A program made the translations under genes and the position numbers. 64,000 nucleotides of DNA from Octopus vulgaris. Taxonomy: Eukaryota. The notes under the pieces are model-generated. The model was given only the letters and a program-made list of their open reading frames with translations. It ran no database searches and was not told where the DNA came from. The stretch spans positions 149,172,001 through 149,236,000 of the forward strand of contig OX597816.1 in assembly GCA_951406725.2 (NCBI GenBank). Direction: 5' to 3'. Shown piece by piece: positions 4,248 to 59,205 of this stretch (its first letter is position 1; every line of letters begins with the position of its first letter).

Positions 4248-5249
4248 CTGCAGTATATATGATATTCCTGATTGTTGAGGTAAGTCCATATTATAAATCC
4301 TTAACGTAGAAATTTGCGTGGTTCGCAGACAATGATTTGTGTAGATCTGAGAACAACCAGCCTCTCGAGAAATCTCTTTCATTCGAGTTCCGAGAGTGTT
4401 TTTACCAATTGGCATGTTATCATACCATGGAACTTCATCTGGATTCACATTCTGCTTACTTCTTTGCCAAAAAGCATCACAGAGTGGATTTAAGAGGTTA
4501 ATGTATTTTTTGAAAGAAGTCAGCGGGCACCATTTATTACCGGGTATTTCATACATGCGTACTTCATTAACAGGAGGATCCCCATTGCTGTTCAGCTCAG
4601 CTCCAACCCGAAAGGTAACATATTGCAGACCCTGAGGTGATAATTCAATACTGAAGTCTCGTTTCGAAATCTCCCGCAGATTATCGCGCCCGCGGCTACA
4701 CATATGCAACATTAAATCCATGAATACCTTATTTTGCAAACCTCGTGGCTTGTCCTGATCCAGAGCGGACGATAGCATAATTTTCTGTATATCTTCCTCT
4801 GTAATAGGATTCTTACGCTTAATAGCATCCTTGCCCATTGCCCTCAATTTCATCAAAATTACACTGAACACTTCATTGGCTTCAATGAATTCGTCATCTG
4901 TTATAATATCTAAATGCGACATTCTTTTGAAGTGACGCTGTAAACCGTAACGCAACGTAATCATCGATTTCCGAGCATAGAGTTTACCACTAACTTGGCG
5001 CACCTCTGTGTAGAACTTTTGCAGAAATCGGCTTAATTGTTGAGCAGGCTTTTTTTCTAATAAAGATAAAGTAGTGTGTTGAGTTCTACAATAGTCCTTT
5101 AGAATTTTGACAGCACTTTTGATAATATTTTGAGTTCGTAACGATTCATCTAAATCGATAAGCTCCACACCGTTCATACGGTTTGGAGAAACACATGCTT
5201 TAGGGTCTTGTGCTTCTGGTTGAGAATCGCCTAGGCTGTTGGACGCCAT
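4248..5249 (-). CDS. Variable exon V3: Crypton-derived tyrosine-recombinase-fold (DUF3504-like) domain
   Basis: L..FY.EVR...G..Y...S...LRYGLQRH, GLQNKVF, SRGRDNLR, CP...FKKY, FWQR, WY...PIGKNTL...M..IS..AG....YTNHCLR; donor CAG|GTGGGT, phase 0. Confidence 0.88.
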
Positions 5250-5767
5250 GTTGAGTGACAGAATTAAGAAATAATTATATAATGAAATCTATGAGCATTC
5301 AGCAATAACTGCTAGCTTTTGACTAAATATAGAACCATACAGTGCAATAAAATAGGCTGCAGTAACGTGTGTAAAGAATTACGTTAATGATACTATGATG
5401 CAAAAGCTGTTTCCACTCTCATATTTCTCCCACCGCCATTTTCCTGTATTACACTTATTTCCCATGGGGAACAGTAGACTATTGACCGACAGTAGTAAGT
5501 CCACGTGAGATGCACTAGCCAATGAGAACATCCGTAGTCATAGTTCTAGCTATTACACTATTACATGGCAACTAATAGCTAGGTAATAGCAAGAGGAAGA
5601 TCGAGAATTAAGCTACCGCGAAACAATATATTTCGAGAAGCCAATTACTGAATAGCAGACTCATCCAATCGAAAAAATCGCAGCAGATGTTACAATGTCT
5701 CTAGAAAACAAAAACAAACAATACAAAAGAAAAAAAAATAAATTAAAAAAAAAAAGAAGCAATTAAC

Positions 5768-6040
5768 CTGGTAACAATCCAATAGCGGTATAGGGTCAGG
5801 GTGCTCCGGAGTGGGGCCGTTCTTACCAATAAAATGCAAGCTACATAAATATGTCCATGGTTTGATGTTATTAACAGTGAAGTATAATCGACCGCAAGCT
5901 TTCACCCAACGCTGACACTTCGTTAAGTCTTTGTGTGGTTTAGGGAATGGAATCCACCAGACCCCTTTCATTTGCGGTCGGTTAGGATAGCGGCTATCAC
6001 TTTTACAGGTACCATAGCTACAATGACGATTGGCCGGCAT
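5768..6040 (-). CDS. Variable exon V4: complete THAP domain
   Basis: ATG 6040; CSYGTC...PFPKP...RW...C.R...LCSLHF...PDPIP; donor CAG|GTTAAT, phase 0; ORF tail beyond donor is poly-T intron-like. Confidence 0.87.
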
Positions 6041-9000
6041 TTTGTGTATAAAGTCGTTAAAAATTATTTCGTCCTTCCACAAGATTCATCAGAACTTCAA
6101 CAGATCCATGCAGCAATGCGAAAAAAAAAAAACCCAGTCATTTATATTCACTATTAAATACATCAAACATGTTCGAAAAATGCTGGTCACGAGGTTGAAT
6201 AGAATATTATGCTGTCTAAAGTAAATGTAGCACTAGGATTTATTGATTACCGTCATCTTATGATAACAGTAACTTCCCGAAAAATTGAACAACAGCGAGT
6301 GTTTTCTAAATCCTATTTAATTTTTAGCACCAAGTTAAATATACAGAGTAAAAGTGAGGGAAAAAAAGCAGGCACTTCGCTTTGATAAACTGCTTAAGTA
6401 TGGCGGACAATAATCGTAGTCACAAACATAGTTTGTCCTATAAAATATACAGTAATCTACACATGATAAAACCTGCTGTTAACTCAGATATAGCAGCAGC
6501 AGTGGAAGGAGGGAAATAGCAGCAGCAGTGAAAGGAGGGAAAGAAGTCAGATAAGGAGAATCAACACAGACAAGTTCAACACGTCAGTAATAGCAGTAGC
6601 AGTAGTGAGTGTTACCATGGCAACGACCAGGAAAAGAGCTCTCTTTAACATGTCCTAAATACAGCAGTAGATTCAGGTAGTGGGCAATGCAAGTTAGCTA
6701 TTTTACTATTTTTTTTTCTGTCTCCATCGTACAATAGCAATCATGACAGCAAAAGATAAGACAGATAAGCCACTGGTATTCCATTGCACATAAAATATTT
6801 GAGGACAATGATTCTAAAATGCATTAATGGAAAAATATCTATACTTTTCTAGTTCTATTTAAAGACGCCTTGTACTCTTCAGACACCACATCAACACAGA
6901 ACCCTTATTTCTGACCCCATATCAAAACGAATATTTGCGGAAGAGGCAGCTCTAGTAATCGCCCCTCTTTAAAATATATAGTAAGATAATTTAGAAAATA
7001 TTGTGAAAGGATGCCAACAATGAGAACAAAAATAGAAAAGAAACTTTTTGGATCTTGCAACTACAAAGTTACCCCCTTATCGAACATGCTTTATGGGCTC
7101 AAGGAATAGTTACTATGACCTTCCTATTATCCAAGATTCATTCTTAGCACAGTATGATTGTATCGAAGTTAGTAGATCAAGCAAACACACAGGTACCCAA
7201 ATTTAGACATCGGTAGGCAGCCCTCATGATTAAGCTACAAGATGGTGAGAAAGAGTAATGAAAACAATAGAAAAGTGATTGGCTTCCTTTCGAATCAATA
7301 AGAGGGACTGAAACACTTGCCAGTAAACGAAACATTCTCAATACTGGCGTTGCAGAGAAGAATCGAACCATGGCACATGTACCGGATGATTATGAAACAG
7401 TTTGGGAGGGGTTGGTGGGTGGAGCCTCCAGATTAATAGAAATTAGACAATAAAGATCGAGGAAACAACATAACGTAAAGAGAAAATATCTTAAATATTG
7501 AAATAAATCAGTCACTAAATATGGTGTATAGCGATTGCTAACTAGCTCACCTGCAAAAGTAGCATAGACTTTTTTTTATTTCCGTAACTTACTCCAGCCA
7601 TTCGTTTGCAAGAACATTACAACCTCTGAAGTTGGATTATAAACCATTTTCACTCTAACTTGCTCAAACAACCGATGCATCCTTGAACTTAACATAAAAG
7701 ACGAGGGAGCCTTTAGTCACTTAACGGTACTAGAAATAAGTCAAACCCCTCCAACTCCACTCCTACAAAAAAAAAAAAAAAAAACTTGACTAATACAGCA
7801 GTGTAAACTTCAGGCAATCTACTGTATGTGTTCCCGACGGGGACACACACAGGATGAATCCCGAACGAGATTCGTGGAAAATCCGAAGGTGAAGACACCA
7901 ATGCAATTTGGTTAAATGCCAATATAATTTAATAGTGTATTTAATGCGGAATTCGACCAATGCCAGAAAGAATTAGGGGCGACACACAAATATATATATA
8001 TCCTAGATAGTTTGTACCGCACGCTTGCAGTGTGACTGAGTAGATGCTTGTCAGTAGCAACAGTTACTGTTCTACTGCATCCTGCCACCCTTGATGTTGA
8101 ATAGTGGAAAAAATATCAAGGGTAGCAGTTTTGTGATGGGAGCTGAAGTATATTATCAAAATATTCACAGTTCTTCAGATTAATGAAAAACAGCACACGC
8201 CACTTAACCTGAAGTGCATATACAAAGAAAAAATTTATATATAAACATCTTCCAACTCGGCACTGTCGATATATACACACCAAACTACACACAACTAATT
8301 TTCTAGTTAGCAATAAGTTTAGTATGATTTTACAGTTGATTAAAAACAGCCGAAAGCTGCTGTGGTAATTATTGCAGTTACGTGTTTTAAAGATACATTG
8401 ACTACATTGTCTGATGAGGGAGAAAAAGATTCAACTTACGATACATCCTAAAACCCCGAGTATTTATCACTTATTTACATCTATATTTATAACAAGCTTC
8501 AGCAACGTGAAAGAATCAAAGTTTCTTTCGGGCTTTTATTAGTGAGTAGCTTGTTTTCTCGCTGTCAACTCCACATAGTGATGAGTGATTTGAACAAAAC
8601 TATAATCCTTTTTATAAAATGTTTCAAAATTGCAGTAGAAAAAAGAGCGAGGCACTTTATAGTGTTAAATAAATTGCTCAAGAATGTTCGAAAATTGTAG
8701 TGAGAACAACGTATCTTCATACACGACAAAACAGGAGCAATAATAAAAGGAGCGAAGCGAAAGAGACATGTTCAACAATGTGTAATAAATAAAAGTAATA
8801 TTTGCCCGAGGTGGTGGAAGTACTGAAAATTAATCAGTTTAAAAATTTCTACAGTCAATTTCAAATGTTTAAACAATACTATAATACAATAACATTTACC
8901 GATTTGTCTAAGTGCAAGCTAGGAAGGTATTTCAAGTGAATGAACTTTGAATAGGGTAATAAGAAAATGATTTGGAGTGGTAAAGAATGTCCACAGCGAG

Positions 9001-10180
9001 TAAAATATTTAGCTTGGTACACATACAAGTGTTACACTTCAGTTGTCGCTTTTATGCAGTTGTAAACTTCTTAATCAGCTGAAAACTTTCCCATTGTTTT
9101 TCAATATATTCATTTTAACATAGGATCCAAATCGGGATTACATACTACCATGCTAATAAAAATCATAGAATATAATCACTAATCGCTGTGGTCCAGGTCA
9201 GTGCTTATCACCCAGACCTTTGATAAGATTCCAGACATGACTGACTGTTCCATCTTTTATCAGTCTAGGATTACATTACCGGCCGTACACTCACTCAACA
9301 GAATACAAGAATATCTTATACAATACATATGCCATTCAAATTCCATAAAGAAATTATTGCATTTCCAATGTGTATGTTTTAAAAATAAATTTTTAGTCAT
9401 AAAGAAAAACTTTTGTTTATATTTTGTTGTTTAATCCGATATAATAGTAACTCAAATTCTTTTTAGATGATACACAAAATTTGTTTCGAAGCCGACAAAA
9501 TAACCAGAATCATCACTATTATAATTGGATCAATCAGTTGACGCGTTATTTCGGAGATATAAAAAAACGTATTTAAATGTGTCCGGACCGTATTTTGATT
9601 TGTGTTTGACTGTAATAGGAAGAATTGCTGCATTATGTAATTTGAGGAATGCTAGGAGCAGCTCAGAAGACCATGTAGAGAGGTTCGTAGGCTCCATTAT
9701 CTCAATGTATTTACAGGTAAATGAATAATGGGAAAGAAGCTTTCATTACTTTACCACTTGATTTAATTGAATATAAAAGAACAGGACATCGCTGTTACAC
9801 CGCTTTAACATATTTTAATTATCAAAATACAGCCACGAAAAGATAATGATGAATGTGAGAAAGTACATGAAATGTTTGGAGCCTTTCAATTATTGAACCA
9901 ACCATTAATTAGTATTACAGTTTGAGCATTAACAAAACCGTCGTTTGCAAGAAGTAAATAAAACGGGGGGAAAAAAAGAATGCCAATAAATCAATGCGCA
10001 TGCGCATGGAAGGCAAGCCAAGTTCCTACAATCGATAAATCAAAAGAAAAATAACGGACGTTCGTAAACACTTGTAATACCTTAAATATAAGAATCGCAG
10101 ATATATGCAGAACATGAAATATTAAGTAGAATCCAATAAAGCCTAGTTTAAGACACTCAAGTGGTAAAAGAAAAACTTAC

Positions 10181-10555
10181 TTGAGGAAAAGGAAACTCCA
10201 AAGAGGCCTTACCACCGTAGAGCTTTTTACTGTCCCGAGCTCTAAAATCAATTTTAGGGAAGATAGTTTGAGCAGGTGTCCATGGGAAAATAGTCGGAGC
10301 AGGATTTTGAGGGCTAGGTTCTCCATCTTTAAAGTGTCTAGAGCAAACGCGATGATGTTTTTTTGGACCATCCCAGTTGTCACCACGTCTTACTAGCTGC
10401 GTCCAAAGTTGACGCATGTACGGATCTTTCTTGGCAGTAGGAAAGGGGAAAAAGCGAACACCACGCATGAATGGATAGAGACTAACATTCTTGCGCGAAT
10501 CAGAGCTACACTGATGTACAATACACCACCACTTTGCTTTGCAAGTAGGCTCCAT
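10181..10555 (-). CDS. Variable exon V5: complete THAP domain
   Basis: ATG 10555; CIVHQC...FFPFP...W...VRR...VCSRHF...PAPTIF; donor CAA|GTAAGT, phase 0. Confidence 0.88.
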
Positions 10556-10907
10556 ATTAAAAAAATATAAACGACACGAACCAAGCTCGTTAGGCAACCC
10601 TCCAAAAAGGCAGGCAAACAAGAATTTATGATAACTGAACGGAAATGACTATGCCTTCACCTATCACGTGACGTCCAAGGGATGCAACTGCAGAAGTCGT
10701 TGACAAAATATGAAAAAAGGTAAGCAGCTAAAATATGCAAAAAATCCGAAAGTAAAAAAATAAAAAGAGAAAGAAGAAAGTAAGATATTTCTTGATTAAG
10801 AAATGTAAATATGTACGGAATGACGAAACTAAATGCGCTCGCTAAATTTGTAATTAAGCCAGGTTACACCACACGACTGATACAAGTGATATTTTTATTG
10901 TATCTAC

Positions 10908-11219
10908 CTCAAACCGCTTCTTCGCTCCTCGTCGTCGGATTGGTTTGAAGTTGAAGATAGTTGGTACTGCGTCTGGTTTAAGTCGTTGTTTTATTTTGAT
11001 GCCCCAGTGCTTGAGTAAATTAGGGTCTTTTACATAGCAGTTTCGTTCGAAGTGATCCGAACACAAACTAGAGTATTTCGAAGGTATAAATTCTGCCCGA
11101 TTAACCCTTGATAACCATTCCTTGTATATATGTGGCCTTGTGTTGCTGTCAGGAAAGCGGAAAAAACTTCTACCACTTCCTGTTTGATTACTGCAGCCGA
11201 AAGCAACACAGTGAACCAT
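10908..11219 (-). CDS. Variable exon V6: complete THAP domain
   Basis: MVHCVAFGCSN...FFRFP...W...V.R...LCSDHF...LKPDAVPTIF (AVPTIF box); donor GAG|GTAGAT, phase 0. Confidence 0.9.
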
Positions 11220-11310
11220 TTGCTACCATTTAAATTTCAATCCTAAGAGTATGGACTTTTTCCTCTTTTTACATGAACTGCTGTAAATCTTAACTAACAG
11301 AGATCACACA

Positions 11311-11382
11311 AAGATGGCGACAGTGTTGCACTAAAGTGATGTCATTACGAGTGGGGAGGTTACTCCGGAAATATCCGGAAAC
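11311..11382. promoter_or_regulatory. Putative promoter of V6 (YY1-like and tandem ETS-like sites)
   Basis: AAGATGGCG at 11311 and TCCGGAAA twice at 11364-11381, in the ~260-bp gap between the V7 donor and the V6 ATG. Confidence 0.5.
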
Positions 11383-11481
11383 GTACGAAATATAGTTATG
11401 GAAAAAAAAGGGCAATCGTTGAAATTATCATGCAAACATGCAACGATATTTGACAATTAAACGAGTATTAATAGAATTTAC

Positions 11482-11934
11482 CTTTAACGAGTCAAAGCCT
11501 GTACGCTTTAGAAAATTGTTTAACCATCCTTTACTAGCAACAAAAGGTTCGTAACTTCCACCCTGGTCTTGAACAAAACGCTCGTAAATAGCCAGTGCTT
11601 TGTCTCTAATACATATCGTGCTGAGGCTAAACTTCTTGTTTTGTAGTTGTTTCGTTATCCAAGTTCCAAGCACCTTTTCAGTTCTTTTTAACGCGGTATT
11701 CCCTATCCTGGTTACCGTTCCAGAAAACGGCGAGGAGTATAACACGGAATTCTTTATTTTGTCAGCATTTTTTTTGATTGAACGAATAGTGCTCTCTCCA
11801 ACACCGAACATACGGCCTAATGCAGATGAACCTTCTCCAGATTCGGCCCGTCCAAGAATCTCTAACTTGGTCTCTAATGTCAAATAGGTTCGTTTACGTT
11901 TTGTGAAAGAACTAGAAGCCGAACGTAAAGACAT
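11482..11934 (-). CDS. Variable exon V7: CENP-B/pogo-Tigger bipartite HTH DNA-binding domain
   Basis: ATG 11934; KRKR..LTLETKLEIL...G......LGR.FGV.ESTIR.IKKN and E..L..WI...I..KA...F.ASKGWL..F..R; no DDE domain; donor AAG|GTAAAT, phase 0. Confidence 0.88.
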
Positions 11935-13407
11935 GTCGCGGTGATAAACATATGCAAAAACAGACAAAAGGAGGAAAATGCAAAACACAAACAAGTAACC
12001 GGCACGATAGACTAACTTAGCAGTGGTGTTCTAAATCTAGGAACGCTAGATAACCAAGCAATCTAAACTTCTTTCCCACAAGGCCACACGCGCCAACTGA
12101 TCTCTCTTTCTCTCTCTCTCCTCTCGTCTTCCACTCATTCCCACCTCCCGCCCCGAAATAAAACCAACATTTCACATTACAGCTAAGAGAAAAGCAGGAG
12201 ATACAAAAATCAGATACACTCACTAAATCGCATTATCTAAATTCGCATTAAAGATGGTGGCCTACAAAGCTATCTCCCGTTATTAATTTTTTTCTTCAAA
12301 TATTTACAATCTTATATATTTCTTTTAAGCAAAACTGAATATTTTAAAAACTGAAATGTCAATAAAAATAAAATATAAATTAACAGAACAACTCTACCTG
12401 GATGTATCTTACGTTACCTGGGTATGCATAAACATACATCTATACAACAATGTACTCTTAATGAACGCAGTAACTATACCCCGAATGAATATCCATTTCC
12501 ATTTATTTTTCATTTCCTATTTTTTTAAAATTTGACTTGTAGAATAACTTGACTAACAACGATGATAGAGTACTCATTAAAAGAAGATAGCCTGCTTCTT
12601 ATATGTAATATTTAAAATGCCAGACAGTTTGTACAAATTTATATATACACACACAGACATCCATACACGAAAGCAACCACCTTTAAGCAGATCTTGACGT
12701 ACAGCTTGACCCCCCCCACCCCCATTTATTACAGTAGTGGTTGAGCACTTCAATTTCAGGGTGAATAGGCTATTCCAGAGATGTTAGAATTATCTATATA
12801 TTTACACTTAAACTTCGTTTGAAGATTTAGATAAATACATCTGTTTAATACAGTACACTTCTATTGGCAAAGAAAAAAAAAGTATCATAATAGTGTTTGC
12901 TGCTCTACATGCTTTAACAGCAGCTAAAATTTGAACGTCCAAATAAAAAATTTACAGTATCTACTGAATGCATTCTCATGAGATAGATGTTGATGATGAA
13001 TCTAAAAATATTAGAATTGATTGAAAGGACAGGAATTCTGAAAAAGCAGCCTAAAATAAAATACTTTCTTAATTCTGTCTACGAATAATGAGTCATTCCA
13101 TTACAAAACAGGAGTAGAACGTAGGCGCCTAACACAAGCATGTTGACAGTGGTCATCACATATACATGGAGCGGCTGTAACTTTTTCTTCCTGACGGCAA
13201 CATCACTGAATTTTTACTAGAAGCTGTTTCTTCGTCGGCTAAAGTATAGTTGGTATGGAATCTATGCCATAGACCTAATTTAATACGGATCAAGCTAGAT
13301 AGATTGAACATAGACGGTGTTTTGAAATTACAACTAGTCTTACGGACAAATTCAATATAGATCTCAGATTTATAAAAAAAAAAGACGCGGAAACTTATGA
13401 CGGTAAA

Positions 13408-13607
13408 CGCCATCTTTCCTTAACAACCACGGAGAACACAGCAGGTAACCATGGTAACAAGGAGCTTGTATTTATTTTGCCAACCTATTTTCTATAAATG
13501 TGAAAAACAACGGTGGGGGTGAGGTCAAAGAACTACACAAACACGAGGTCCCAAATGCCATTTCTAGACTACTTTGTCATAGACGTAAGGGCGTCATAAT
13601 GACGTCA
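13408..13607. promoter_or_regulatory. Promoter-like motif cluster with no identified coding exon
   Basis: YY1-like CGCCATCTT 13408, RFX X-box-like GTAACCATGGTAAC 13445-13458, CRE TGACGTCA 13600-13607; locally CpG-rich. Confidence 0.45.
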
Positions 13608-14941
13608 CCAATTTGCGCAAAACGTCATTTAGAAAAAAGAAAAAGAAGCGTTCAGCGTGCAATATTCAATGAAATTAAGCAAAGACTAAATCAAATAGTT
13701 CATGCTTTTTGAGTCTACCTAGTCTGGAAGATTATTTCGGAGCTGAAGGATTACTGCGCCAAAAGAGAATAAAAATCAAATTTCGATTTGTGGCGAGCAC
13801 AAAGCAGAATGAACATCACGAAGACAAACTCATTTGAAAAACTAGTCAATCAAGATTGTACTAGAACAGAATTTTCAGGAAAGTGATTAGTCAGTCAACC
13901 TATATATACGCACGCAAACAGATCAACCCATCGTAATGGATTTGCTTTAGCGCCACAACAGACGATTTAATAAATCGTCTAAAATGTAACTTGTAATTTG
14001 AAAAGGCCAATATTTTAGCTTCGTAAATGAACTAACCTATAAAAGAACACCCCCCCCCCCAATAATTCTTGCTTAATTATGCAGAATACCCGGATAAACT
14101 ACAACGAAAGCTTTAATATAGTATACTCGTTCGCTTTCAATAACAATGATGTGAGTTGTAAAACTTAATATTGTATTACACTTTCCTACATATTTTCAAC
14201 TTAACTGGTGGCAATGTACATATAAATATTAAGTGTATGAATGTATATTTCATTTGTATTTATAATTAAAATCTTAAATTCAAACAGCAGCATTTAAGTT
14301 TTAAGAAAGGAAGGAGAATAGTAATGTATTTATTGAATAACATATTACATTTTCATTCAGGGTCAAGTAGCGGGGTATCGACTAAACCACTCCTCTTCAT
14401 ATTTGCTGGCTTTATGTTAAATAAAATAACTACTGTGTTAGGGTATTCTGCAAAAGTAATCGACAATTATACAAGACATAAATCAGCTTTATAGGACAAG
14501 TAATTAAATCTAAGAATTTAAACAGATAAGGAAACTTTATGAGGTATGGCACATCCCTTGCAAAAGATTTTAAGAGGAAACTGCGAAGTGGATCGAGCCA
14601 ATTAAAGGAGCTTCTGTGTGAAATAGCAGCCACATCCATAGGCTAATGCAATCTAACCAACTTATTTCTCTAAATATTATGTGCAGCAATTAGTAAATTT
14701 TACACTTTATTGTAAGTCGGTGGCTGTCACTATACTGCCTATTTAAAGTTAATGATGTGAGCCGCATATTTTCTAATTATAAAACTAGATAAGCCCTTTA
14801 CATCAAACACAAGGTACAGAGAAGTATATGACAAAAATAAAGTTGCGTAACTGATTAAAAAAAAAAAGAATTTTCCAAATGAAATCCCTGACTTAAAAAT
14901 GGCATTACATGATCGTATAACTTGGAACCCAACAAACTTAC

Positions 14942-15277
14942 AATGACATTATCAGGATATCTCGTGGCACTGTTGTTTACAGCGTTGAAACGCTTCAGTC
15001 TTTGTTCGGTAACAAAGTTAGATTCATCCTGTGGCCTTGGCGAGAATATTGTAGGGACATAATCAATACTGGCTGTATTACGAACGGGGTATCGGCTGTG
15101 GAAATGCAAGCCACATATACGGTCGTTGTCGCTAGCAATCCAATTTGGCCTGTTTATAGCATTTACCCACAACTGACGCCGATGAGGGTTTCGCGGGAAT
15201 CTATGCAACCGCAAGCCGAGCTCAGAATTTTCTTTGGTAGCCCTTACTTTACAACCTACCACAACACAAGATGGCAT
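14942..15277 (-). CDS. Variable exon V8: complete THAP domain
   Basis: MPSCVVVGC...LHRFP...RR..W..AINR...RICGLHF...DYVPTIF; donor ATT|GTAAGT, phase 0. Confidence 0.89.
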
Positions 15278-15849
15278 GACTAGAGTATGAAATAATACGA
15301 ATAATAATAAAGAAAAAAAGTGTTAGGATACAAAAATACTCTAGCGAAGAATAGAGATATGTCGGCCAAATAAACGATGCGCATGCGTTAACCCCCACCC
15401 CTGCTTTTTATAATGTACTCTCTTGCTTATTTGGCACAAACTTCCAACTACTCTCGATACACAAAACACGTTTACCTATAGGATTCAAACAAAAATTGAG
15501 CTACAAAAAAAAAGCATTTGAATTCGTTTACATATATCGATAATTATTTTAGTTTTTAATTTCAATATTCACACCATTTGGAGATTGAAAAGAGATAAAG
15601 ATCTGAGACCAGATTCATAAATCCAGGAATATGCATGGTGCTTCCAAACATCATAAACAAGCAACTAACAACGGAACCGGTAATCAGTTGCGCACGTGTA
15701 CATGAAAAGTATGCATGACGTTCATGCCTGTCTCATGAGCATCAGTGATATATGTAAACAAATTTACACTGCGATGTGAAACTATCCCGCAAACAGTTAG
15801 ACTAAAGAGTGAACCAGTGACGTAGTTGATTACGATTTATCTAATATAT

Positions 15850-15992
15850 ATTTCTTTACTACCCACAAGGGGCTAAACACAGAGGAGACAGACAAACGGA
15901 TTAAGTCGATTACATTGACCTCAGTACGTAACTGGTACTTAATTTATCGACCCCGGAAGGATGAAAGGCAAAGTCGACCTCGGCGGAATTTG
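15850..15992 (-). mobile_element. CORE-type SINE fragment
   Basis: Minus strand reads tcaaattccgccgaggtcgactttgcctttcatccttccggggtcgataaattaagtaccag; related copies near 36650, 43150-43215, 48500 and 63530. Confidence 0.7.
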
Positions 15993-16623
15993 AGCGTAGT
16001 GTTTTTATATATATGTGTCTAAAATCGTGAAGTAGGAGAGAGAGTAGTAAAGTGAAGGGAGAGGAGAGCACATAGTAATTCAGTGGAGAAGTAGTAAGAG
16101 TAATAGCGCTGACCGAGAGAGAGTGAGAGAAAGGAAGTAGCAAAGAGTGCGTCGTGTATCTTGTTTTCTCCGTCACAACATGAGAAAGGAAGGTGTGAGA
16201 AAAAAATCAGCGTTTCAACTGTGTGTATGTAAAAGGGAGAGGTATGTGAATGTTTGTGTGCAATGGAAATGGGATGGTGAACTTGAGTTTATGTGTGTGC
16301 ATGTACAAGGAAAGTATAGACTGTTTGTATCTGTGATTATAATGTATAAAGTACTACAATTAGCCGTCATTTTTGACGACACGGGGTCAGGCTAGTATAG
16401 TTATAACCAGTTAGTTGCTAGTTAAAAAAAACCAACTTCTTAAGGAAATGAAAAATTAAACTGAACATCTGTTTTCTTTGTAAAATATTTGGAAGCTTTT
16501 CGACCCATCTCCACATTTCTCGGATTCTTTTTTGACAAATGAGAGAATAACGACACTTCGTTCTATTTATACAGAATCATTTAAAAACAATTATGGACAA
16601 AATTCAATACTTATAATACACAC

Positions 16624-47081: not shown

Positions 47082-47087
<6 letters not shown>

Positions 47088-47162: not shown

Positions 47163-47245
47163 ATAAATATGTATGTGTGTGTGTTTGTAAAAAAAAAATC
47201 CGAAAGAAGAAGCGAACTCTAAGATGTAGAACAGTATATATATAT

Positions 47246-47406: not shown

Positions 47407-48741
47407 ATACATAATCCGAATTTCGGATAACATACCAACTCTACTAACAGATATACGAGTCATCTTCTCCCCGACTTATGGTCTCTTAGACGACACGTGT
47501 GCGTGTACACACACACGACATGCTAAATCAAATGTGGCTTATGTGTTTACACGTGATACCAAATTATTTGATTTCAATTTCAACGTATAAATCTCGATTT
47601 AGTCAAGAAAATCTGGTATTTGTGATGTTCATGCTTTTATAATAGTATTAAGCAATATAAGTAGACTGTATGGTAGGATTGGCGTTTAACTTATAGAAAT
47701 CCTTGTATATTATATAAATTTTAGAATACGTACAAGAATATTTAACTTACGATTGCAGATATGACTAATAGTATATAATAGACAATACATCATTTTTGAA
47801 AATTTAACTTCAATGAAAGCAATTTCCAAACTTTGCTTAAATTTAATCTAAATAACCAACAACACATTCTGATGCTGGACCTTACGGGTGATTTCAAAGA
47901 GTTTGAAAGTATCAGTTAAGTGTTTCTTAAACAACAAAGCGGTGAGGTAAGTGGGATAGGGGACCAGCATTTTATTGCCTGATTATCAGGACAGAACGTG
48001 TTTAAACACAGCAACAAATGTGAGGAGTTTTGGAATGTGGTTGTAGAATTAGAATAAGCTGAGCAAGGTCAGATATAAAAGGCTTACAGCTGTTATGGTG
48101 TGACCTAAGGAAAAAATAAAAGTAGAAACCTCCAAGTTCGTGTGTGTGCATGTAGGTGGGTGGGCACTCAGTAGAATTTAGTTAACAAATGGTTATAACA
48201 TTTCATTGAATCTATTTCATTACACAAATTATTGTACTCATTTAATAGTAAAGAAAAAATAAATACCCATACAAAGTATCCTCAAACTGGAGACCTGGCT
48301 AAATGCTTTGCAACAGGGTGGGATACTATTAAGCTACCCAAGGTGTCAGGTGGTGGCAATGAACAAGGCACTGGATTAAGTCTCCCACCTAAGTAGGCTA
48401 CAGCAGGATTTGAACTAAAAACTCAATGAGATAAGACAAGAACTATAAGGCATCTATTGTTATGTTCTTACAGATTTGACAATTCCATAGTCACCCTCAA
48501 AAAGATGAAAGGCAAAACTGACCTCTGGAATTTTAAGTCAGTGTGTGACATGGCTGAACAAATACAGCAAGACTATCTGATGCTCTAATGACTACAAATA
48601 TGTATCAGTTCACAAGCAAATTTTTAAATTAGCAAGGCCCAAACGGAGCATGGAAACAACCTCAGTCACCCAAACATTAATTTAACCAAATTAATATGGC
48701 ACTGATATTACAAGTTTAATCACACACACATATAAATGAGA

Positions 48742-48943
48742 GAGTGCTGAAAAGTGCCTGATTCTTAGGGTATCATGAAAGACCTGGTTGGAGGCTCGAC
48801 ATTCCAAATTATTTTACAGGGCTTAGAAAAACTGAAGAATTGCTGCAATAAGTGTGTGAATCTGAGAGAGGAATATGTTCAATAGAAACATAACTGATCC
48901 TCCTTATTTTCCTTTACCCAAAGCCAGGAACTTTTCAGCAGTA
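48742..48943 (+). mobile_element. Short mariner remnant
   Basis: GLEKLKNCCNKCVNLREEYVQ* resembles a mariner C-terminus; decayed TIRs tgctgaaaagtgcctg / ccaggaacttttcagca. Confidence 0.55.
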
Positions 48944-50554
48944 CACACACACATTGCTTTTAACATCCACTTTTTAATGGAATTCATTGAGACAAATTGT
49001 CAATGGTTGAATGCCCTTCTTGTGGCTAACCCTCACCTGTTTCCAAGCAAAGCAATATTTCCATATGGATGGACATGTTATCACAGAAAATTGGAAATGA
49101 ACAACACTTGTAAGACAGTTTACATTCATTTATAAATATTGTGTGATGTTAAGGCAAAAAGATACAAACACACTCATGCATGGGTTTGGTTGGCTTGGGG
49201 GTTATAATAGAAAATAGTAGCCCAAGGTGCTGCACTGTGTGACTGACCCAGAAACCATGGCATTGGGAAGTCAGCTTCTTAGTAGCAGAGCCATGCTGGC
49301 ACACAAATATATTTGAATGTACATACACACAAAGATGCACTTAACCATCATACATATGTACATTTACAAGTATACATTTTAAATTGTTTTAGTCAGGAGA
49401 AAATCCGGTGCTCAAAACCTTGCACAGGGCCACTGTGAATAGAGAAAAGGGAAGAGGAAGGCATCCTTAAATTAGAGAACAGACTCGAATGCTTGCGACA
49501 GATGGATTCTGCCGAAGGTGCAAGGTAGTGTTAATAAGAATAAAATTAAAATATTGATTTTTTTTGTTGTTGCAGTATCATGTCAGAGCTCTAAAATACA
49601 AATCTAAGGGTGGGGGGAAACGTAAGAGCCCCAAAAAAGGAAATCGAGTGGGTGTAAGAAATATAAACAATTTTTTTTTGGGGGGGGGCACCTTCCCACC
49701 TCAAACTGGAGAATTGCAATCTTCCTCTATTCCACAGGATTACAAGACACACACGTGGAGTGAGGGGGGGGGAGATACTTTTAAGAAAATAAGCAAAAGA
49801 TAAAAAATACACGGAGAGTGTTTTGAAGCCCGCTAAATAAATATCCATGGTTATAACCGGGTTCCTCTGTATTAAGAAAAAGAATGTGATGTTTTTATTT
49901 TAGCTGGAATTTCTGTTCCATAAAGCGTTTATGCTATATACATACGCCATAAACTCTACATGACTATTTTCTTAAATGACACAAGCATAATAAATATGCG
50001 TAACATGACTAATGTTATACTGACGGCATATGCAGTTCAATAAATTTCACTGAGAGTATGTATAGTCGATTAAAGTAACTAGTGCAAAACTGATATCTTA
50101 TTTTTATCGATTTCGCATCCCACCTCTCTCAAGTATCAGATGATGCTCGGGAGGTGTACTTGGCTATCATACACATTTTTAGAGGGGAATACCAACATTC
50201 CTTCAAGCACAGTACAAACTGTGGGAGTCGTGCATACTTCATTTAATTACTGCATTGTTCTTTCTTCTTTACTACCTGTTTGCGATCTTTTAGTTCAAAT
50301 CTAAAATTTTTACAGTGGTCGTAACCTCTAGTACGTAAACTTAACTTATTAAGGAATGAACTCAGAAAATGCAGTAAGATAGTTTCAAGAGAAATGTACT
50401 GTTTCTGCTGTATTAATATGAGAATGTAACAGTAACAATGTGTATAAAATATTTCCCATAAGTTACTCACACATTTTAAACAAAGGCGCGATCGATTGGA
50501 TAAAATCCAGCAATTTATATGGCAGTTAATTTATCGACGAAGTTTTCGATTCGC

Positions 50555-50860
50555 AACCACGTGGCTTCAGGTTCAATCCCACTGCACGACACCTTAGGTG
50601 AGTGTCTTCCACAACACCAGATCGACCAATGTTAATGCCTGGTGAATGAATTTAATAGGCAGAAATTGTGAAAACTCGTCTTACGTGTAATAGTGTGCAT
50701 TTACGTATTGAACAGACTCCCACTGCTTATCGGTCCGGCAAAAGAGACCGAGAGAATAAGTATCTAATTTTAAAAAAGCACTGGAGTCGAATTGTTCGAC
50801 TGACCCGTCAAGACGGTGCTCCAGCATGGTCGCAGTTCAATGACTGAAACAAGAAAAAGA
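50555..50860 (+). mobile_element. tRNA-derived SINE, diverged copy
   Basis: aaccacgtggcttcaggttcaatcccactgc...ggtgctccagcatggtcgcagttcaatgactgaaacaag, homologous to 36207-36598. Confidence 0.8.
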
Positions 50861-50943
50861 ATAAGATAATACTGTGATTATAACCAACAAAATTAATAAT
50901 AATAATGATCATAATAATGAACAATAGTAAAGGTAAGCCTTAC

Positions 50944-51294
50944 AGTAATCCGTTTGTCATCCTCATTAGTCTGTTTTTGTGGTAAAGATCCTTTAGTTTG
51001 AAAAAGAGTTGGTATTGCACCAGGTTTCAATTTCATTCGTGGTAATTTGCAGCGGTAGCCGACCTCCAAATACCGACTTTCGAAATGGCGCGTACAGATT
51101 CGAATCTTGCACCGTATTTTTGCAATGTTTGAACATGTCATATCAAGAAAATTCTCCATCTGGCCAGAGTCAATACCCAGATTCTGGGCCCAGATCCGAC
51201 ATTTTTCTCGGTCCTTCGGAAAACAATGCAACCGAATATGACGAGGTAATCGACCGTCGTGGCTGGTGCAACCAAATGCTATACAATGTGGCAT
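50944..51294 (-). CDS. Variable exon V17: complete THAP domain
   Basis: MPHCIAFGC...LHCFPKD......W...ICTRHF...LKPGAIPTLF; donor ACT|GTAAGG, phase 0. Confidence 0.88.
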
Positions 51295-54200
51295 GTGTTA
51301 ATTCAAATTAGATGAAGGACAGTAAAGAGCAAATTTAAAAGTAAAAATTTTTAATGTTTATTTTGGAGAGTATGTATAAAAATTTGAATAGCTCCGTAAC
51401 ATTGAGTGAAGGTAAATTTAAAAAGATCAGGTTATATTTTTTACTGTCTCGTATCAACAAACGAGTATAATGCTGAAATTCAACAGTGAAACGCGGTGAT
51501 TCTACGGAATAAATGGAAACGTAAGGTAACTTAAGGCGTCTATGAAATAGGTGATGCACGCGCGTATTCAGAAATACATACGAGCCTATATAGTAGGTGT
51601 GTGTCCGTCTAGGTTCACTGGATTAGGATAATTACCATTTTAAAATTTTAAAGTGTTTAAGAAAATTGATTTAAAGCATCAAAGACATATGGTCACTGAA
51701 AAGCGGAACAGTGAATGAATAAAAACTAGAGAGAGAGAGTGAGTGAGTGAGCGAGCGAGCGAGCGAGGGAGAGAGAGAGATAGTAGTCTAACAGCTTAAC
51801 AATTGCGACCCAGTGTTGAGTCGGTGAATATGATTCATTGGGTCATATATGGCACATAACTTTTATTTGCACCAATAGGAAGAGCGTGTTGCTAAGAAAC
51901 AGCGAAAAAGATAGAAAGAAACGAATAAACGACACGGAAGAACAGAGATATATAAATAGAAAACAACTTAAATCCAATTTCGATATCATATTTTAATTTC
52001 TTAACCCACGATTTGACATACTTCAACAATAACAATAAATTCACCACAAAAGAAATTCATTTTTCGTTTCGAAGAAGGAAGAGTAGAAAGTCTTTTATAA
52101 TTTCATTTACATCTAAGACTATATTATAGGAATATAAATGGATCTTAGTACTTGACTTAATGTTTTTTTCTCGACCCCCGGATTTTCACTTAGAACGTAG
52201 CTAAATACTCTTAATAAGTTCGACACAAATGATTTTGCAATCTACCATTATTGATAGAAAATTAGGTTCATAGCTTTCTGCATGTATTAGTCAATATATG
52301 TACAAACCGAGCTCAATTCAATCCAACTCATAAACATGCTGAGCAATGTCAAAAGAACAAATGCCAAGATTCACATTTAAGTTTAGAGAGTAGCCCCACC
52401 ATCCCTCATTAAAAATCCACGGACATTTACGGAAATTTTTCTAAAATTTACGAATATTAAAACTTGGTTATCAACTCAACTTTTCAAGCAGTTAACACTG
52501 AATTACACCATTCACTTACGATTTATTTTACCAAACACCAAATCTATAAACTTTGTGGGAGCGAATGCAAATTAGTATTTCCCCCAAAACCTTTAATGCA
52601 GAAACGCATAAACTACCATTAAATGTTCAAACCGATGTCACCTCTATATGTTAAAAGTTTATCGACTGTTCATAGAATATTTGCATCCAAATTTCAAAGA
52701 GAGCCATAATCATAATTTATACGGTCTGAGACAGTTCTTATTTGTTGTTACCACTACATGAATTGGTGAACATCACACCTTTGACATGGATATGGTCTCT
52801 GCAACTGGATGTTCTCGTTAACACCATTCACCCCACATTTACAAAGTGCTTGAGGGCACCTTGTACTCACATCAGAAGAGAGATTGTGATGGCCTTGACA
52901 GGCACAAAGGCTTCTTTTCATCGAATGTCGTCTGGTCATTTGTCAACCACTTAACAGAGTTTTAATGCAGTGAAAGAAGTCACCTTGTTTTTGCACGATT
53001 AAAGTGTCCTCTCTATTCAATGTTGTTTTCGTTCTTTCAAAACAAACGTGACTGAGGGGGTAAATAGAATAACGAGATGATCAAGAAGATAAGAAGATTA
53101 CATGAATGTGACAGAGGAAAACAATGAGCGTACGGTAAAGGAGAGAGTACTGAAAAAGAGACTAAGAATATATATGTATATATAGCATCATTAGAGTCAA
53201 ACGCTAGAAATCCAAAAACTTTCCGTCTCTGCTGATGACACCATTCAACCCATTACACAAGTGACTGCGTTAACACTGTTGGTGTGGGAATTTGCAGAAA
53301 AATAATAGTTAGCATCGATGATTCATTAAAATGTTTAGGTGAGCTAAATCATAAATGTAAAACTTCATGGATTCTACTAAATACTCATATCATTTGAGCA
53401 ATTTTTTTTTTACACACTCGGAGCATTCGGAACATGCTGTATTTACAGAATTACAAATTACATTAAATTAATATATATATTTTTCTACACAAGTTAAGCA
53501 ATTCTAAACTGCAAGTCAAGTGAAATTAATACAACCGGAAATATAAAAATAAGCTTGCTTATGCAGTCATTTCACTTAGGACTTGTTTACATTCAGATAT
53601 TCTGCAAACTATCAGGAAATACATAGTTTTTGGCTAGGCACTCAAAAGTAAAGTGATTACGGTACAGGGTTACAAACAGTGCTAAAGTAAAAAAAAAAAA
53701 AGCCAGAAACATCACTAAATGCAACAGTCATATGGAAACCCGTTTTCTGTGGAAGGATTAGTTAAGAATAAATAACTGCAAATTACCAAGTCTACATACA
53801 CAAGTTAATTTAAAACACCCACCCCCAATCTTCAGATATATATCAGTGAAGAAAAGTACATTTTCTTAAAACTGTTGTGATATTCATAGATTTTTAAGAA
53901 TGCTGTAAGAAAATCAATGGGCCATAGACTAGATTTGTTACGAGCTTATCACTTTGTGATGCTCAAGATTGAATATAAAAATTTGCTAGACAAAACAGCT
54001 GGATGGAAAGGACACTCTAACCAGTTCAAAAGAAAGAGTTGTATATATTTCATTATAATCGCAACATGAAACTAGCTGTAAAGGTGTATAATTTGATGAA
54101 GTTTGGTATTAAAGAAAGTCTTTATGTAAGATCCAACTGAATCTGATAAAGTTGATGAATGAGCCTTGTGCAGTGTTCTATTGCAAAAAAAGATGTTAAA

Positions 54201-54934
54201 ACTGACTAGGATAATTTACCTACTTCACTAAAACCAATGAAGCTTTTGTTGATACCAACAAAAATGTTATTTCTATTACGGCTTGTCTACTGAACTAGTG
54301 AAGATGGTTAAGCAGGATATAGTCAATACATTCTGATTAATATCTATTACCAAAGGCCAACAAAAATTCTCGCTGTCAATCTTAGGCTCTACTAATAATG
54401 AATATCATGAACACATGGGAAGCAAATATATTGACTTATTTACCTATTTTAAAAAACTAAAATGAATGATCATGAGTTGCTCCTGAATATTTTACGATAA
54501 ACAAAAATGAAAGCTTGTATATCAAAATAAAATAAAAAGCTCTCAAGTAGACATCAAACTAAAATAATCAACTATAGATTTGATATTGATGACATGAGAG
54601 GAATATTCATTGTATTACTTTGAAATTAAAAAGGAAATTAAGTAAAAACTCGTGTTTACTGCTTTTAAAGTAAAGCTTGTGTGTAGTAATGTAAGATGTA
54701 CAATATCGCATGAACAAACATTCACTTTGAATAATGTAATATTTTGCATGTTTAGATAAGTAACATAATACATAATTTGAACTGTGTGTGTAAGTTCGCG
54801 TTCTCACTCGAATACATAGGCACACAAACATATCTCGACTTGCTAGAGACATTAGTTTTCAAATTAGGATAAAGGCAAACATTAAAAAAAAACAACAACC
54901 TGAGATACAGTTCATAAAAATGATAAAATTATAC

Positions 54935-55135
54935 CTTGGTACAAATATATGTTGCTCTGCTGATGCGATTAACGTTGAATTGATAGGAAGGTCTACCACA
55001 GCACAGAATCCATCGTAGACATTTCTCTAGGTTTTGTTTGGGCTTCGGAAAAGGTATGAACTGAACACCGCCCGCCAACCTCTCGGGAAATCTATTGTCA
55101 GTGTTACATGTACCATAACAACACCGTTTAACCAT
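54935..55135 (-). CDS. Variable exon V18: N-terminal half-THAP
   Basis: MVKRCCYGTCNTDNRFPERLAGGVQFIPFPKP..NLEKCLRWI..CGRP...YICTK; donor AAG|GTATAA, phase 0. Confidence 0.87.
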
Positions 55136-58110
55136 CGTATTGCATAGATAACAAAGTGGAAAAGTAAATCAATACTTTTTGCAGTCAGACAACGTTTCTT
55201 TTGTTTTCTTATAATTTGAGGATGTTTACGGTAAAAGACTTCATAAAGAAATACGAATAGGGGAGGGGGGCTAACAGACGTACAATTCAATGTTTGTCTG
55301 AGTTAGCAGCACAGACACTATCATATGACGCAAACACTCACTGCTGATTGGCTTATGCTGCCCTACAGCTGAAATGTAGCAAGGGAAATAAACCATAACT
55401 GCAACAGATCGTAAGCTGTCAAATACACTACGAGTACACTCAGGTATAAAATTGCAACGGGCAACATTGCGTTTGGTTGAAATCAAATTCCACAGGAACC
55501 GATATAAAGTATCTGTAACATATTGTTGAAATTCATCATCCTTCAAAACTAGATTATTGAAGACAATGCAAATATAGGCACAAGCTGAATTAGGTTACCA
55601 AAATATTTAGAAGTTGGAGCCACCAGATACATTTACCTCTTTATATGGGTTGTTTAATGGTAACAGTCATTTCCGACTCTGGCCCAATACATTAAATCAT
55701 CCCAAGAATAATAAAGATTTGAGTGAGGTGACTTAGAGGAAACTAATATGTGGTTAGTACTAATTTTATCGACCCGAAAGTATATGATGCCAAAATAATA
55801 AGACATCTTCAGCCTAACCATCAGAAAAGGATTGTATCCTGGATAGAACTCCCACCATCATTGGTGACAACTGCCTAATAAAAAATGCTACTCTATCCAC
55901 CGAATCAGAAAAGACGGTACCGTTTGACTCTACTTTCACTACACAACAATTACAAGTCAGAGCTGAAGTATGGACGCGTGAGAATTTAGAAAAAACAAGA
56001 ATAGTCATACATTTGATGTTGCTAAACAGGAGGTCCAGTTTATGGACTTAAAATTGCTTAATGTTAGCATAAATATGACCAGTTAGTAACAATAAGAATA
56101 TTTCTTAAGATGCACTACACTATTACAGCACATCAAATATTTTGTCTTAGTAGACAAAACCTTTCACTAAGGGAGTTACTTTCTACTATTTTTCTACTAT
56201 TTTATATATTTAAACACTGAAAGTGTGTGTACGGGGGGGGGGGGTTAAAAAATAAGCAAGGAATATAATTGTTAGGTGGTCACTCAATGTAAGTATACTC
56301 TGCCATCATATATAAGGAAAATATACCCAGATCAGTAGCTTTTAACCAGGGATGCAATAACCACTCACAGACATTGTGAGCTCACAAAGAACAGCACATG
56401 TGAGAAGTGGGCATAATAATTTTTCTCATAAATAAAAGATAAACCAGGTAGTCATATTTGAAACATATTAAAAAAACTTTTAAAATTTTAAGGTATACAT
56501 ATCAGCAAGTAGAAATATGTGATGATGTGCCAAGGTCCAGTATAATTTCATTATATAGGTCCTTGTCTTCTTTACTAACTTCCATAAAAATTTAACATAG
56601 GGGGTAATACCTAAGCAAACATCTAAAAAGAAGCATATGCTGAACAGGCTACAGTAATAGGAATAATAAATTACCTGCAAGATTAGTATATGTTTTCATT
56701 AAAAACAATCTTTTTAAAACTTTTATTATTATTATTTTTTAAAGGCAAAATGGAGTTAGAACCTATGAAAAACATTTCCTGAAAGGAAGCACTGAGGTAC
56801 AAAGGTCTAATAACTACTGATTTAAATAATGTAGTTCAAGATGGCCATTAAAAAGATGAGATGATCAGAGCTGAAGTACATTTGATCATCCAACATGCAC
56901 CAATTCAATTTTTTCTTTTTAAATTTGAGACACAGAACTGTTATTTTAAATGTGACATAGTGGATTTGAAACCGTAAAGAAACTCACTGGTGACAATAAA
57001 CTTTTTATGCCATAGTATATATTTTTAATGTTTAAGAAAAGGTAATATCTAAGAAATTAATCTATCCAAAGAAAGAATATAAATTGGCTGATTCCTTGGC
57101 ACATGCAAAATATGTAGAATTACAAAAGTTACTAAGAAACAAAATCTGGAGTGGGAATGGATACTAAACTATAATTACACCAATGAAAAAAATAGACAAG
57201 CATTTAGAATACAAAGTACTGTGTAATGTTCAAAGCATTCAACCTTAATCCTAAAATCAGTTTAAAAATACTGAAGACATGGCATGTCACAGGTCCATCA
57301 AAGAGTTGATAATCCAAAGCCAGGCAACACACATACAAACTTTCAATATTTGGGACAAAGCTGCTAATTTTCAATGAATCTACCAAATTTTGTAACTCAG
57401 AATAATACATGGAAGAAAAAACTAGAATCCAAGATTCTCTAGGGGTAAAATGGAGTCAGAAAAATAAGAGAAGCAGGGAGAGTGAAAATTGCAGTCATTG
57501 ACTTGTTATAGTTTAAATAGAATGTCAATGGAACCAGTTTCACTAGTCTGGAAGGCCTATGAAAGCCCTGAGAACTATCCTTCCTTCTAGACAAAACTGA
57601 AGAAAATATCAATGTTTCAAAGTAGGCTCGATTGAATGTGTCTTAAATATAATATAAGGTTAAATTTCACTATAATCAGTGAATAGTATTCCTCCAATCA
57701 AACATATCACTTGTTACATTGTTTAGATATATATATTATCAATATTTGTCATTTGGCAATTTTCAAACTGAGTCATGTAGATAAATCAATTGATGCAGAA
57801 GATTTACTGATGCACATTTCAGCAACTCTGGATGGATAAATTCAACACCAGTGAAGTTTCATGTACTGAGCTGAGCAATACAAAACTACATGCTGCAGAA
57901 TACTACACTAATAATCCAGGTATTGTATTTAAAACATGTACCAGTGTAATGAGAGAGATTTTGAAAAGTATCTTTTGTACAAACATGATATAAAAAATTT
58001 TTTTTTAATCAATGAATCATATACATTGCTTAAAAACCTGTTCAAAACTCCCAGTATGCCTTAATCTGAACAAAGATCTTTATTGATGTGAAAGAGAAAA
58101 TTCGACTAAC

Positions 58111-59205
58111 CTCAAATATCCCTGAAAGTGAAGAATCAGCTGAAATCAATCTTTTGAAATGCTGCTGCTTGGCATCAATTGGTGGCTTCTCAGAAGAGAC
58201 ACTGTCCAACTTTGGCCCAGGTAACTGGTGAGTGATTACTTTCTGTATGCTCTTCAAATCTAATTTATCTGAGACAATGAGACTGCTGAGTGTGGCACGA
58301 AGACATTGGTTGGTGTATGAATGCGAGAGGTGTGCTTTGGATGATATTTCTCTCATAAAGTTAGCTATACTCTTGCCACCATGTGGTTGCAATGTGTACC
58401 AGGTAGGCGAATTTGTTACATCTCCAAAGCGGAGTTGACAAAAGAACTTGTCACTTTGTGGGTGCAATCTTGATAAATAGTTTGCAAAAATTTTAACAGG
58501 ACACAATGCTTCGTTTGGAACTTCATGTATCATCCTACAACTCGTGTTACTTAATTCGGTCGGAATATTTTCGCCTGTGTTGACAATACCATCAGTGAGG
58601 ATTATAGATTGCAAACCAGACTTCTGATCCTTGTTAACGCGAAAATGATGTTTCGTTAATTGTGAGAGGCATTTATAGCCGTTACGACCAAAAAACAAGA
58701 CGATGTCCATAAAGACACGTTTCTGGAGCTTGTTTGGATTATTCAGATCACTGTTACACCAGCTGTAGGCTTTTTGTAAATCAGCAAGAGTTATTGCAGA
58801 TTTGGCATTCCCGATAGCTGAGAATTTTTGTTGTAGACTATAGGAATGTTTCTGCCACACTCTGTTAGCCTCTAGGAAATAAGGGTCATTTAATATATCG
58901 ATGCCCCTCTTAAGTATGAAGCGATAAAGGCCATAACGAATACCTCGTAGACCGGCGTGTTTATACCAAGTACCGTCATCTTTACGTAAATCAGGGAAAA
59001 AACTACAAAGATAATTTTTCAAGCGATGCTTGGCTTCCATATCACCACGAGCAATTTGCGACAACAACTGATGGAGTCGTAATTTTTCTCCTTTAGAAAA
59101 AATATATTCTCCAAATTTCTCGCAGGCACTGACTTCGGCGCGCTTTGTGGAATGGGCCTCAATATTGGCGGCGGAACTCTCATTCTGTGATTCTTGAGTT
59201 GCCAT
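58111..59205 (-). CDS. Variable exon V19: Crypton-derived tyrosine-recombinase-fold (DUF3504-like) domain
   Basis: ATG 59205; FF.DLRK.DG.WY....L..IRYGL.R, P..LQKRVF.DI.LFFGR.G, LCPV..F..YLS.LHP, WY..QP.G...I.NFM.EIS..A.LS..YTNQCLRAT; donor GAG|GTTAGT, phase 0. Confidence 0.87.

Follow-up and report, generated by a model that had tools for sequence, protein, structure and literature searches.

Three Crypton-type tyrosine recombinase (YR) exons feed a single BTB gene of Octopus vulgaris. The gene lies on the minus strand and crosses the stretch analysed here (the window: 64,000 nucleotides of GenBank contig OX597816.1, here contig C3:149172001-149236000, in a 2.8-Gb genome), and it offers variable 5′ exons, or heads, to one constant region. 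Three of the heads, V3, V16, and V19, carry DUF3504 domains whose catalytic disarming is supported residue by residue from sequence, and they were likely captured on three separate occasions. Their fusion to a BTB of the ZBTB/kelch type is supported as convergent with that of vertebrate KCTD1. The interpretation favored here, at a probability of about 0.7, is that the isoforms act as dimeric regulators in which a Crypton head clamps DNA without cutting it, mounted on the BTB. New in this account are the distribution of the three exons over three Crypton clades and the finding of five more such exons before four paralogous BTB genes. Throughout, C1, C2, and C3 alone denote constant exons, contig C1, C2, C3, C15, C23, C24, and C27 are genome contigs, and C23, C15a, and C15b name paralogous heads.

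Homology of these heads to Crypton recombinases is beyond chance, with profile-search E-values far below 1e-30 for the V3/V16/V19 family. In Pfam, V19 (P0003) reaches 32.1 against PF12012, above the cut-off, and V16 (P0002, 27.6) and V3 (P0001, 17.7) stay below it. An AlphaFold2 model of V3 has a mean confidence (predicted local distance difference test, pLDDT) of 80.9 and is disordered beyond residue 296. Its best Foldseek matches are QRICH1 in the Zincore-ZFP91-DNA complex (1e-7) and Cre. The superposition on Cre (VIA; Z 15.2, 264 residues, root-mean-square deviation 6.2) stops at Cre residue 312 and does not reach Y324. QRICH1 is 14% identical to the heads, and its matched stretch does not include the HxxR helix. 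Matches in the ESM Atlas fall only in DUF3504/integrase and generic BTB clusters.

The active sites were read against relatives collected with a profile of V3, V16, V19, five octopus paralogs, and one Crypton, which recovered 1835 representatives at E<=1e-30. The best 150 of these provided 154 domains of sufficient length: 80 have a tyrosine 31 to 33 residues after the box arginine (72 at +32), 51 have none, 14 are truncated, and 9 show no readable box. Tyr-intact relatives with G[HQ] and Tyr+32, 56 in number, served as the reference, in which 64 columns reach >=75% conservation and the GH..S...Y segment is nearly invariant (G 100%, H 95%, S 95%, Y 100%). V3 (box HCLR) keeps the first Arg, box His, and box Arg; V16 (HSIR) has Lys for the first Arg; V19 (QCLR) retains only the box Arg, its first Arg being replaced by Asn and its box His by Gln. 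All nine rows of alignment A2 share the second Arg. Aligned to the 56-relative profile, the exon frames of V3, V16, and V19 contain no nucleophilic Tyr at R+31..33. A conserved loop lysine (column 197, 95%), which may be the general-acid Lys of tyrosine recombinases (PMC13465315), is Leu in V3, Arg in V16, and Glu in V19, in a loop that aligns loosely. The initial annotation had read the boxes and the long frames correctly, and its suggestion that the domains are disarmed is borne out by this comparison, with Tyr and Lys gone from all three. Its further claim that the GH-x-S...Y segment is missing stands in part. Alignment of V3 and V16 ends a few residues past the box, leaving the second His without a counterpart, and none of the three has the Tyr; V19 aligns as far as the second-His position and so retains a remnant of the segment. 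That position is His here and in O. sinensis, and Tyr in O. bimaculoides and two Logan orthologs. The conserved columns kept (47/64 in V3, 49/64 in V16, 44/64 in V19) include nearly the whole N-terminal core-binding domain, where V19 has two changes within the first 11 columns; those lost are the C-terminal catalytic ones and Lys197. On splicing, the constant exon adds a Tyr at R+33 to V3 here and in O. sinensis, and a Phe in O. bimaculoides and Argonauta.

Splicing joins these heads to the constant region. The evidence consists of contigs from four runs of four studies, presumed to be RNA. Canonical C1-C2-C3 joints occur in contigs of all four runs and the V3-to-C1 joint (4248 to 1585) in two of four; among the joints listed, at least three other heads share the 1585 acceptor. 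Three database records (P0001, P0036, P0037) hold V3 plus the constant region. V3 is linked directly to the constant region, and V16 and V19 are instead predicted to join through a 96-nt linker exon, L1, which the initial annotation had missed. Gene models of O. sinensis and O. bimaculoides carry V16 (P0002, P0040) and V19 (P0003, P0044) followed by L1 and the constant exons.

The three heads are also maintained. Each is single-copy: among the best candidates scored, the closest other match in the genome is 34% identical for V3, 49% for V16, and 43% for V19, and none is a close free relative. Identity to O. bimaculoides is 96-98%, the 1-kb frames are intact in at least three species, and the three coding differences among V3 contigs are all synonymous. 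Variable sites between orthologous proteins are concentrated outside the folded core (33/201 against 46/884 within it; Fisher p 5e-7). The genome does contain a young CryptonA family, of which seven copies were examined; they share 94-97% DNA identity and an intact GH...Y, several have broken frames, and at 19-26% identity to the heads they belong to a distant clade. The copies (L009-L015) are about 2.4 kb long, and some have full frames. Lacking the R-H-R-Y tetrad and dispersed similar copies, V3, V16, and V19 are, on sequence features, host exons and not an active CryptonA transposon. They show the traits of domesticated DUF3504 domains: no catalytic Tyr, single copy, conservation, and fusion to a host gene. 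The initial annotation had proposed terminal direct repeats as a sign of an active Crypton; these are not diagnostic, because animal Cryptons have none (PMC3212892). Around V3 and V16, the search for terminal repeats gave only short flank matches at chance level, and direct matches in the V19 flanks are marginal (p about 0.01). The latter, between 57777-57891 and 59210-59337, are three collinear matches (15/15, 11/12, 12/13) spaced 1433-1446 nt apart, and 3 of 290 random pairs score as high.

CpG dinucleotides are preserved upstream of the heads (observed/expected 0.98 in the 500 nt before 18 heads, two of whose anchor positions are not on an ATG, against a background of 0.65, p 2e-4; constant region 0.40), which is consistent with separate promoters. 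A YY1-like motif near the heads was tried with two patterns, one loose (3/12, p 0.43) and one strict (4/6, p 0.016), and is not relied on.

The BTB was correctly judged in the initial annotation to be ZBTB/kelch-like and not T1-type. It matches PF00651 (41.8 bits) without a match to PF02214, and at E<=0.05 Pfam finds no BTB_2, KCTD C-terminal domain, BACK, kelch, or zinc finger in P0001-P0003. None of its 49 PDB matches at E<=1 is a KCTD protein; matches to its long-form fold include IVNS1ABP, SLX4, ZBTB18, BCL6, and SPOP. All 18 generic octopus BTBs score 8-37 bits against a profile of the family's BTB, and a KCTD fragment scores 0.5. When P0001 is compared with the fish KCTD1 long isoform (P0178), the recombinase aligns (34% identity, E 6e-49) and the BTB does not. 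A KCTD1/15 gene distinct from this one is present on octopus contig C1, the site of the single genomic match to the KCTD1-15 C-terminal domain, and a DUF3504 search of the genome found no match on that contig. Convergence with KCTD1 is supported because the BTB is of the ZBTB/kelch type and cannot be aligned to that of fish KCTD1, and because the octopus keeps its own KCTD1/15 gene. The recombinase domains agree: an approximately unbiased (AU) test, run for V3 alone, rejects V3 and KCTD1 as one clade (p 0.0027), and V16 and V19 fall in other supported clades of the maximum-likelihood (ML) tree than KCTD1. KCTD1 has lost the box Arg (NHCIG), as reported for human domesticated genes of its type (PMC3212892), and all eight octopus heads keep it. 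In the BTB tree the family forms one clade with support 98.

The initial annotation thus rightly called the fusion independent of KCTD1, but speaking of one fusion understated the case. The ML tree of 46 rows, 37 of them picked from a FastTree of 163 as orthologs, near neighbors, and outgroups, places V3 (99/97), V16 (100/99), and V19 (98/95) in three separate clades, each among Tyr-intact sequences; their mutual identity is 27-30%. A single clade for the three lineages is rejected (AU p 1.6e-7), as is one uniting all 13 cephalopod rows (p 5.7e-6). Because the exons fall in different clades and a single clade is rejected, the gene probably draws on at least three captures and the BTB family as a whole on up to six. 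A single origin had been indicated by an 11-row tree, a product of missing close outgroups that the 46-row tree and AU tests supersede.

Five other single-copy matches to V3 lie on contigs C23, C15 (two), C2, and C24, each 12-49 kb upstream of a same-family BTB on the same strand, and all five, or their orthologs, are represented by fused proteins (P0032, P0109, P0110, P0119, P0131). V19 is sister to C15b (100/100), and V16 groups with C23 (99/93; the group includes one additional row, and strict pairing is not rejected, p 0.52). Heads common to several loci could have been captured long ago, before the BTB genes duplicated, or copied from one locus to another afterwards. Sepia members appear in the C23 and C2 clusters. 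The C2 head (L005) is without the Tyr+32 segment in octopus; its Sepia-containing cluster (P0134/P0275) keeps Tyr+32, and the first Arg is Leu in both. Both in octopus and in Logan/ENA proteins of the cluster that includes Sepia, the C23 head has R-H-R-Y and 58-59 of the 64 conserved columns. Its second His is Gln, the alignment is shifted by one residue, and column 197 has no Lys, one being found three residues further on. The tail of its model has pLDDT below 50, leaving the placement of the Tyr undecided, and Foldseek matches Cre and QRICH1 as for V3. Judged from its residues, C23 is possibly a still-armed domesticated recombinase.

Named matches to the BTB profile at E<=1e-12 (56 matches, 7994 candidates scored) all come from Octopus, Argonauta, or Sepia, a sampling that leaves room for other molluscs. 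Among the best 150 DUF3504 representatives, three carry this BTB by the family profile, and a Pfam scan of 56 adds only KCTD1.

These isoforms could have arisen and could work as follows. A Crypton would have inserted among the variable exons and been captured when a phase-0 donor following its HxxR helix came into use; disarming would have come after capture, because V16's sister C23 still has R-H-R-Y. Each variable exon would be transcribed from its own promoter as a first exon. The head would retain the two-domain, Cre-like clamp around DNA and grip without cutting, DNA binding being the presumed function. Subunits of Cre-type recombinases touch one another through C-terminal helices, which the octopus heads would replace with BTB dimerization. 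The BTB may also allow heterodimers with THAP or helix-turn-helix (HTH) isoforms and recruit co-regulators.

Several observations weigh against this reading or its parts. The best structural match, QRICH1, acts as a coregulator, which means that a head need not read sequence itself, and Pfam DUF3504 scores are below the curated cut-off for V3 (17.7-20.2) and V16 (27.6-29.2). Among the rows listed, two of the four runs show only contigs that read through the V3 donor, the Logan orthologs of V16/V19 (P0043, P0046, P0047) and V3 (P0038) are unspliced read-through, and the V16 and V19 junctions come from gene models of two Octopus species and not from reads. P0135, an 80%-identical V3 ortholog, carries a Tyr at R+32, but G-H is missing and the residue lies outside the region that can be aligned; neither this residue nor the R+33 Tyr of spliced V3 looks like a kept nucleophile, although the one in P0135 may still be. 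On the phylogenetic side, the AU tests used LG+G4 and no mixture model, the mobility of the Tyr-intact neighbors is putative, the 11-row tree without close outgroups put all eight octopus exons in one clade, and the BTB tree joins a KCTD1/15 fragment to the family with a support of 79, a placement flagged as long-branch attraction, and by itself does not exclude kinship.

The QRICH1 match also suggests an alternative in which the heads, like Zincore, clamp other transcription factors such as C2H2 zinc-finger proteins on DNA, or act as protein scaffolds, reading little sequence of their own. QRICH1 in the SEPHS1:QRICH1-ZFP91-DNA structure is the best match by both sequence and Foldseek, and PMC13538652 refers to QRICH1-SEPHS1 as a zinc-finger coregulator. 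Its distance from the heads, a match that leaves out the HxxR helix, the retained box Arg, and the company of THAP and HTH DNA-binding heads make this unlikely. Chances are slim that the heads serve as decoys against transposons, by binding the ends of Cryptons or by poisoning an active Crypton recombinase. A young Crypton family inhabits the same genome, and captured transposases reportedly bind their cognate elements, as in a study of host-transposase fusions; that family is, however, a distant clade, and V3, V16, and V19 have no close free relatives among the best candidates scored. Decaying transposon fossils with leaky splicing would explain the unspliced contigs and the lost catalytic residues, but not frames of 1 kb intact in at least three species, a core more conserved than the tails, or a distant V3 ortholog at 80% identity, and this account is the least credible of all.

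Catalysis may persist elsewhere in the family. It is improbable that the coleoid BTB family, with its up to six Crypton captures, has kept C23 armed in octopus and cuttlefish-like lineages alike as a working host tyrosine recombinase or nickase, with V3, V16, V19, and the other heads as its BTB-tethered, non-cutting targeting partners. Slimmer than the chance of decoys is that of residual catalysis in heteromers, in which a disarmed head positions DNA and C23, paired through the BTB, supplies the Tyr. The tetrad of C23, kept in octopus and the Sepia-containing cluster, speaks for it, as do the R-H-R of V3 and the roughly 60% identity between the BTBs of the contig C3 and C23 genes. It is countered by the Gln, the one-residue shift, the displaced Lys, and the poorly modeled tail of C23, by the loss of Lys and of His2/Tyr from V3, V16, and V19, and by RNA splicing, which accounts for the choice of head so that DNA rearrangement is unneeded.

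The closest parallel to a regulator with a non-cutting Crypton head is the KCTD1 long isoform, in which a single-exon CryptonA DUF3504 likewise forms an alternative 5′ part before a BTB (PMC3212892; bioRxiv 2024.06.14.599007). It too lacks the catalytic Tyr, has a Cre-like predicted fold, and is 34% identical to V3. Unlike the octopus gene, which has a PF00651 BTB without a C-terminal domain, keeps the box Arg, and made at least three captures, KCTD1 has a T1-type BTB_2 with the KCTD1-15 C-terminal domain and stems from one capture in a separate clade, its box Arg lost. KIAA1958 also has alternative intronless DUF3504 exons in one gene, 26% identical to each other against 27-30% in octopus; it has two, with neither a BTB nor an array of other transposon heads described in the available text of PMC3212892, whereas the octopus gene has both. 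QRICH1, ZMYM2-4, and WOC share a domesticated DUF3504, but are intron-containing and of an old bilaterian lineage, in contrast to the intronless octopus heads. A multi-exon DUF3504 gene on octopus contig C27, separate from the BTB family, may be WOC. In Drosophila mod(mdg4) and lola, too, a single BTB is shared by about 30 alternative DNA-binding modules, but it is placed at the N-terminus, and the FLYWCH/zinc-finger variable exons are 3′, arose by duplication, and are joined by trans-splicing (PMC4667647). The octopus heads are 5′, come from many transposon superfamilies, and use nested linker exons; cis-splicing suffices, because all heads found sit on one strand upstream of the BTB. ZBTB and KLHL proteins share the long-form PF00651 BTB, and the octopus protein differs in having no C-terminal C2H2 fingers or BACK/kelch. 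As in host-transposase fusions, splicing brings together a transposon domain and a regulatory domain of the host.

Octopus THAP-BTB and CENPB-BTB proteins have been noted before, with the BTB treated as transposon-derived; the words ‘Crypton’ and ‘isoform’ do not occur in the main text of that study (PMC10027918). The survey of domesticated Cryptons covers KCTD1, KIAA1958, ATF7IP, and WOC/ZMYM/QRICH1, and, in the text available, it describes no such mollusc fusion and reports no function for domesticated DUF3504 domains (PMC3212892). No paper on cephalopod DUF3504-BTB genes was found in a search that left subscription journals mostly outside its coverage, and the supplements of PMC3212892 and PMC10027918 may list the proteins; gene models for the V3, V16, and V19 isoforms are public, without names. 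A recombinase joined to a BTB was invented in vertebrates and, repeatedly, in cephalopods, where a single locus traps domains from many transposon superfamilies. Members of the family line up as a natural series, from tetrad-intact C23 through R-H-R heads (V3, C15a, C24) to heads that retain a single one of these residues (V19, C15b). The series makes the role of domesticated DUF3504 domains, among which QRICH1 now has a structure, directly testable, and it bears on the human KCTD1 and KIAA1958 isoforms.

Inside the window the array holds some 19-20 candidate heads; about 11 others extend it to window-relative 182 kb, roughly 118 kb past the window's high end, for a total near 30 (Table 1). 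Besides the Crypton exons, nearly all heads are DNA-binding domains of transposon origin. A phase-0 GT donor ends V3, V16, and V19, and in a check of 14 heads it ends all 14, of which 13 have an ATG anchor. L1 is used by variable exons lying upstream of it, V16 and V19 among them.

Table 1. Exons of the DUF3504-BTB gene in window positions, with the paralogous gene on contig C23.
Feature	Position	Strand	Description
V3	4248..5249	-	intronless Crypton YR exon, 334 codons ATG-to-donor
V16	44899..46056	-	Crypton YR exon, 386 codons ATG-to-donor
V19	58111..59205	-	Crypton YR exon, 365 codons ATG-to-donor
Linker exon L1	25378..25473	-	96 nt, phase 0/0; located by tblastn of annotated isoforms; AG/GT sites
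Constant exon C1	1350..1585	-	common acceptor; joints from 2208, 4248, 10908, 11482 to 1585
Constant exon C2	959..1262	-	linker and BTB start with N-terminal extension; joints in 4/4 runs
Constant exon C3	1..600, and ~460 nt beyond window edge	-	remaining BTB and low-complexity tail
Other variable heads	2208..63998	-	~16 in window: THAP, CENP-B/Tc5 HTH, Psq HTH, DUF4817, other HTH, zinc-finger-like
C23 paralog gene	L002:1423-2560; G000:C23:26793609 onward	+	DUF3504-BTB, head with R-H-R-Y

A second linker, L2, lies at window-relative 96069-96119 (L021), and distal heads go to L2 and then L1. Short THAP exons end within the domain, the remaining part being supplied by L1. BTBs of the same family stand in tandem near the gene, at least 11 at contig C3:148.96-149.14 Mb and at least five at 151.27-151.38 Mb (L027-L045); the next paralog downstream has a FLYWCH-like head (L017, window-relative -11260 to -11859, minus strand). 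Elsewhere in the genome, an intronless single-copy DUF3504 open reading frame of 599 codons without an HxxR box (L065, G000:C15:72092094-72093890, plus strand) is kin to the clade of the young Crypton. In other animals, the same CryptonA group is fused to KRAB, ATF7IP, and C2H2 arrays (P0187, P0229, P0261; P0195, P0235, P0249; P0144), and some of these proteins keep the Tyr at +32.

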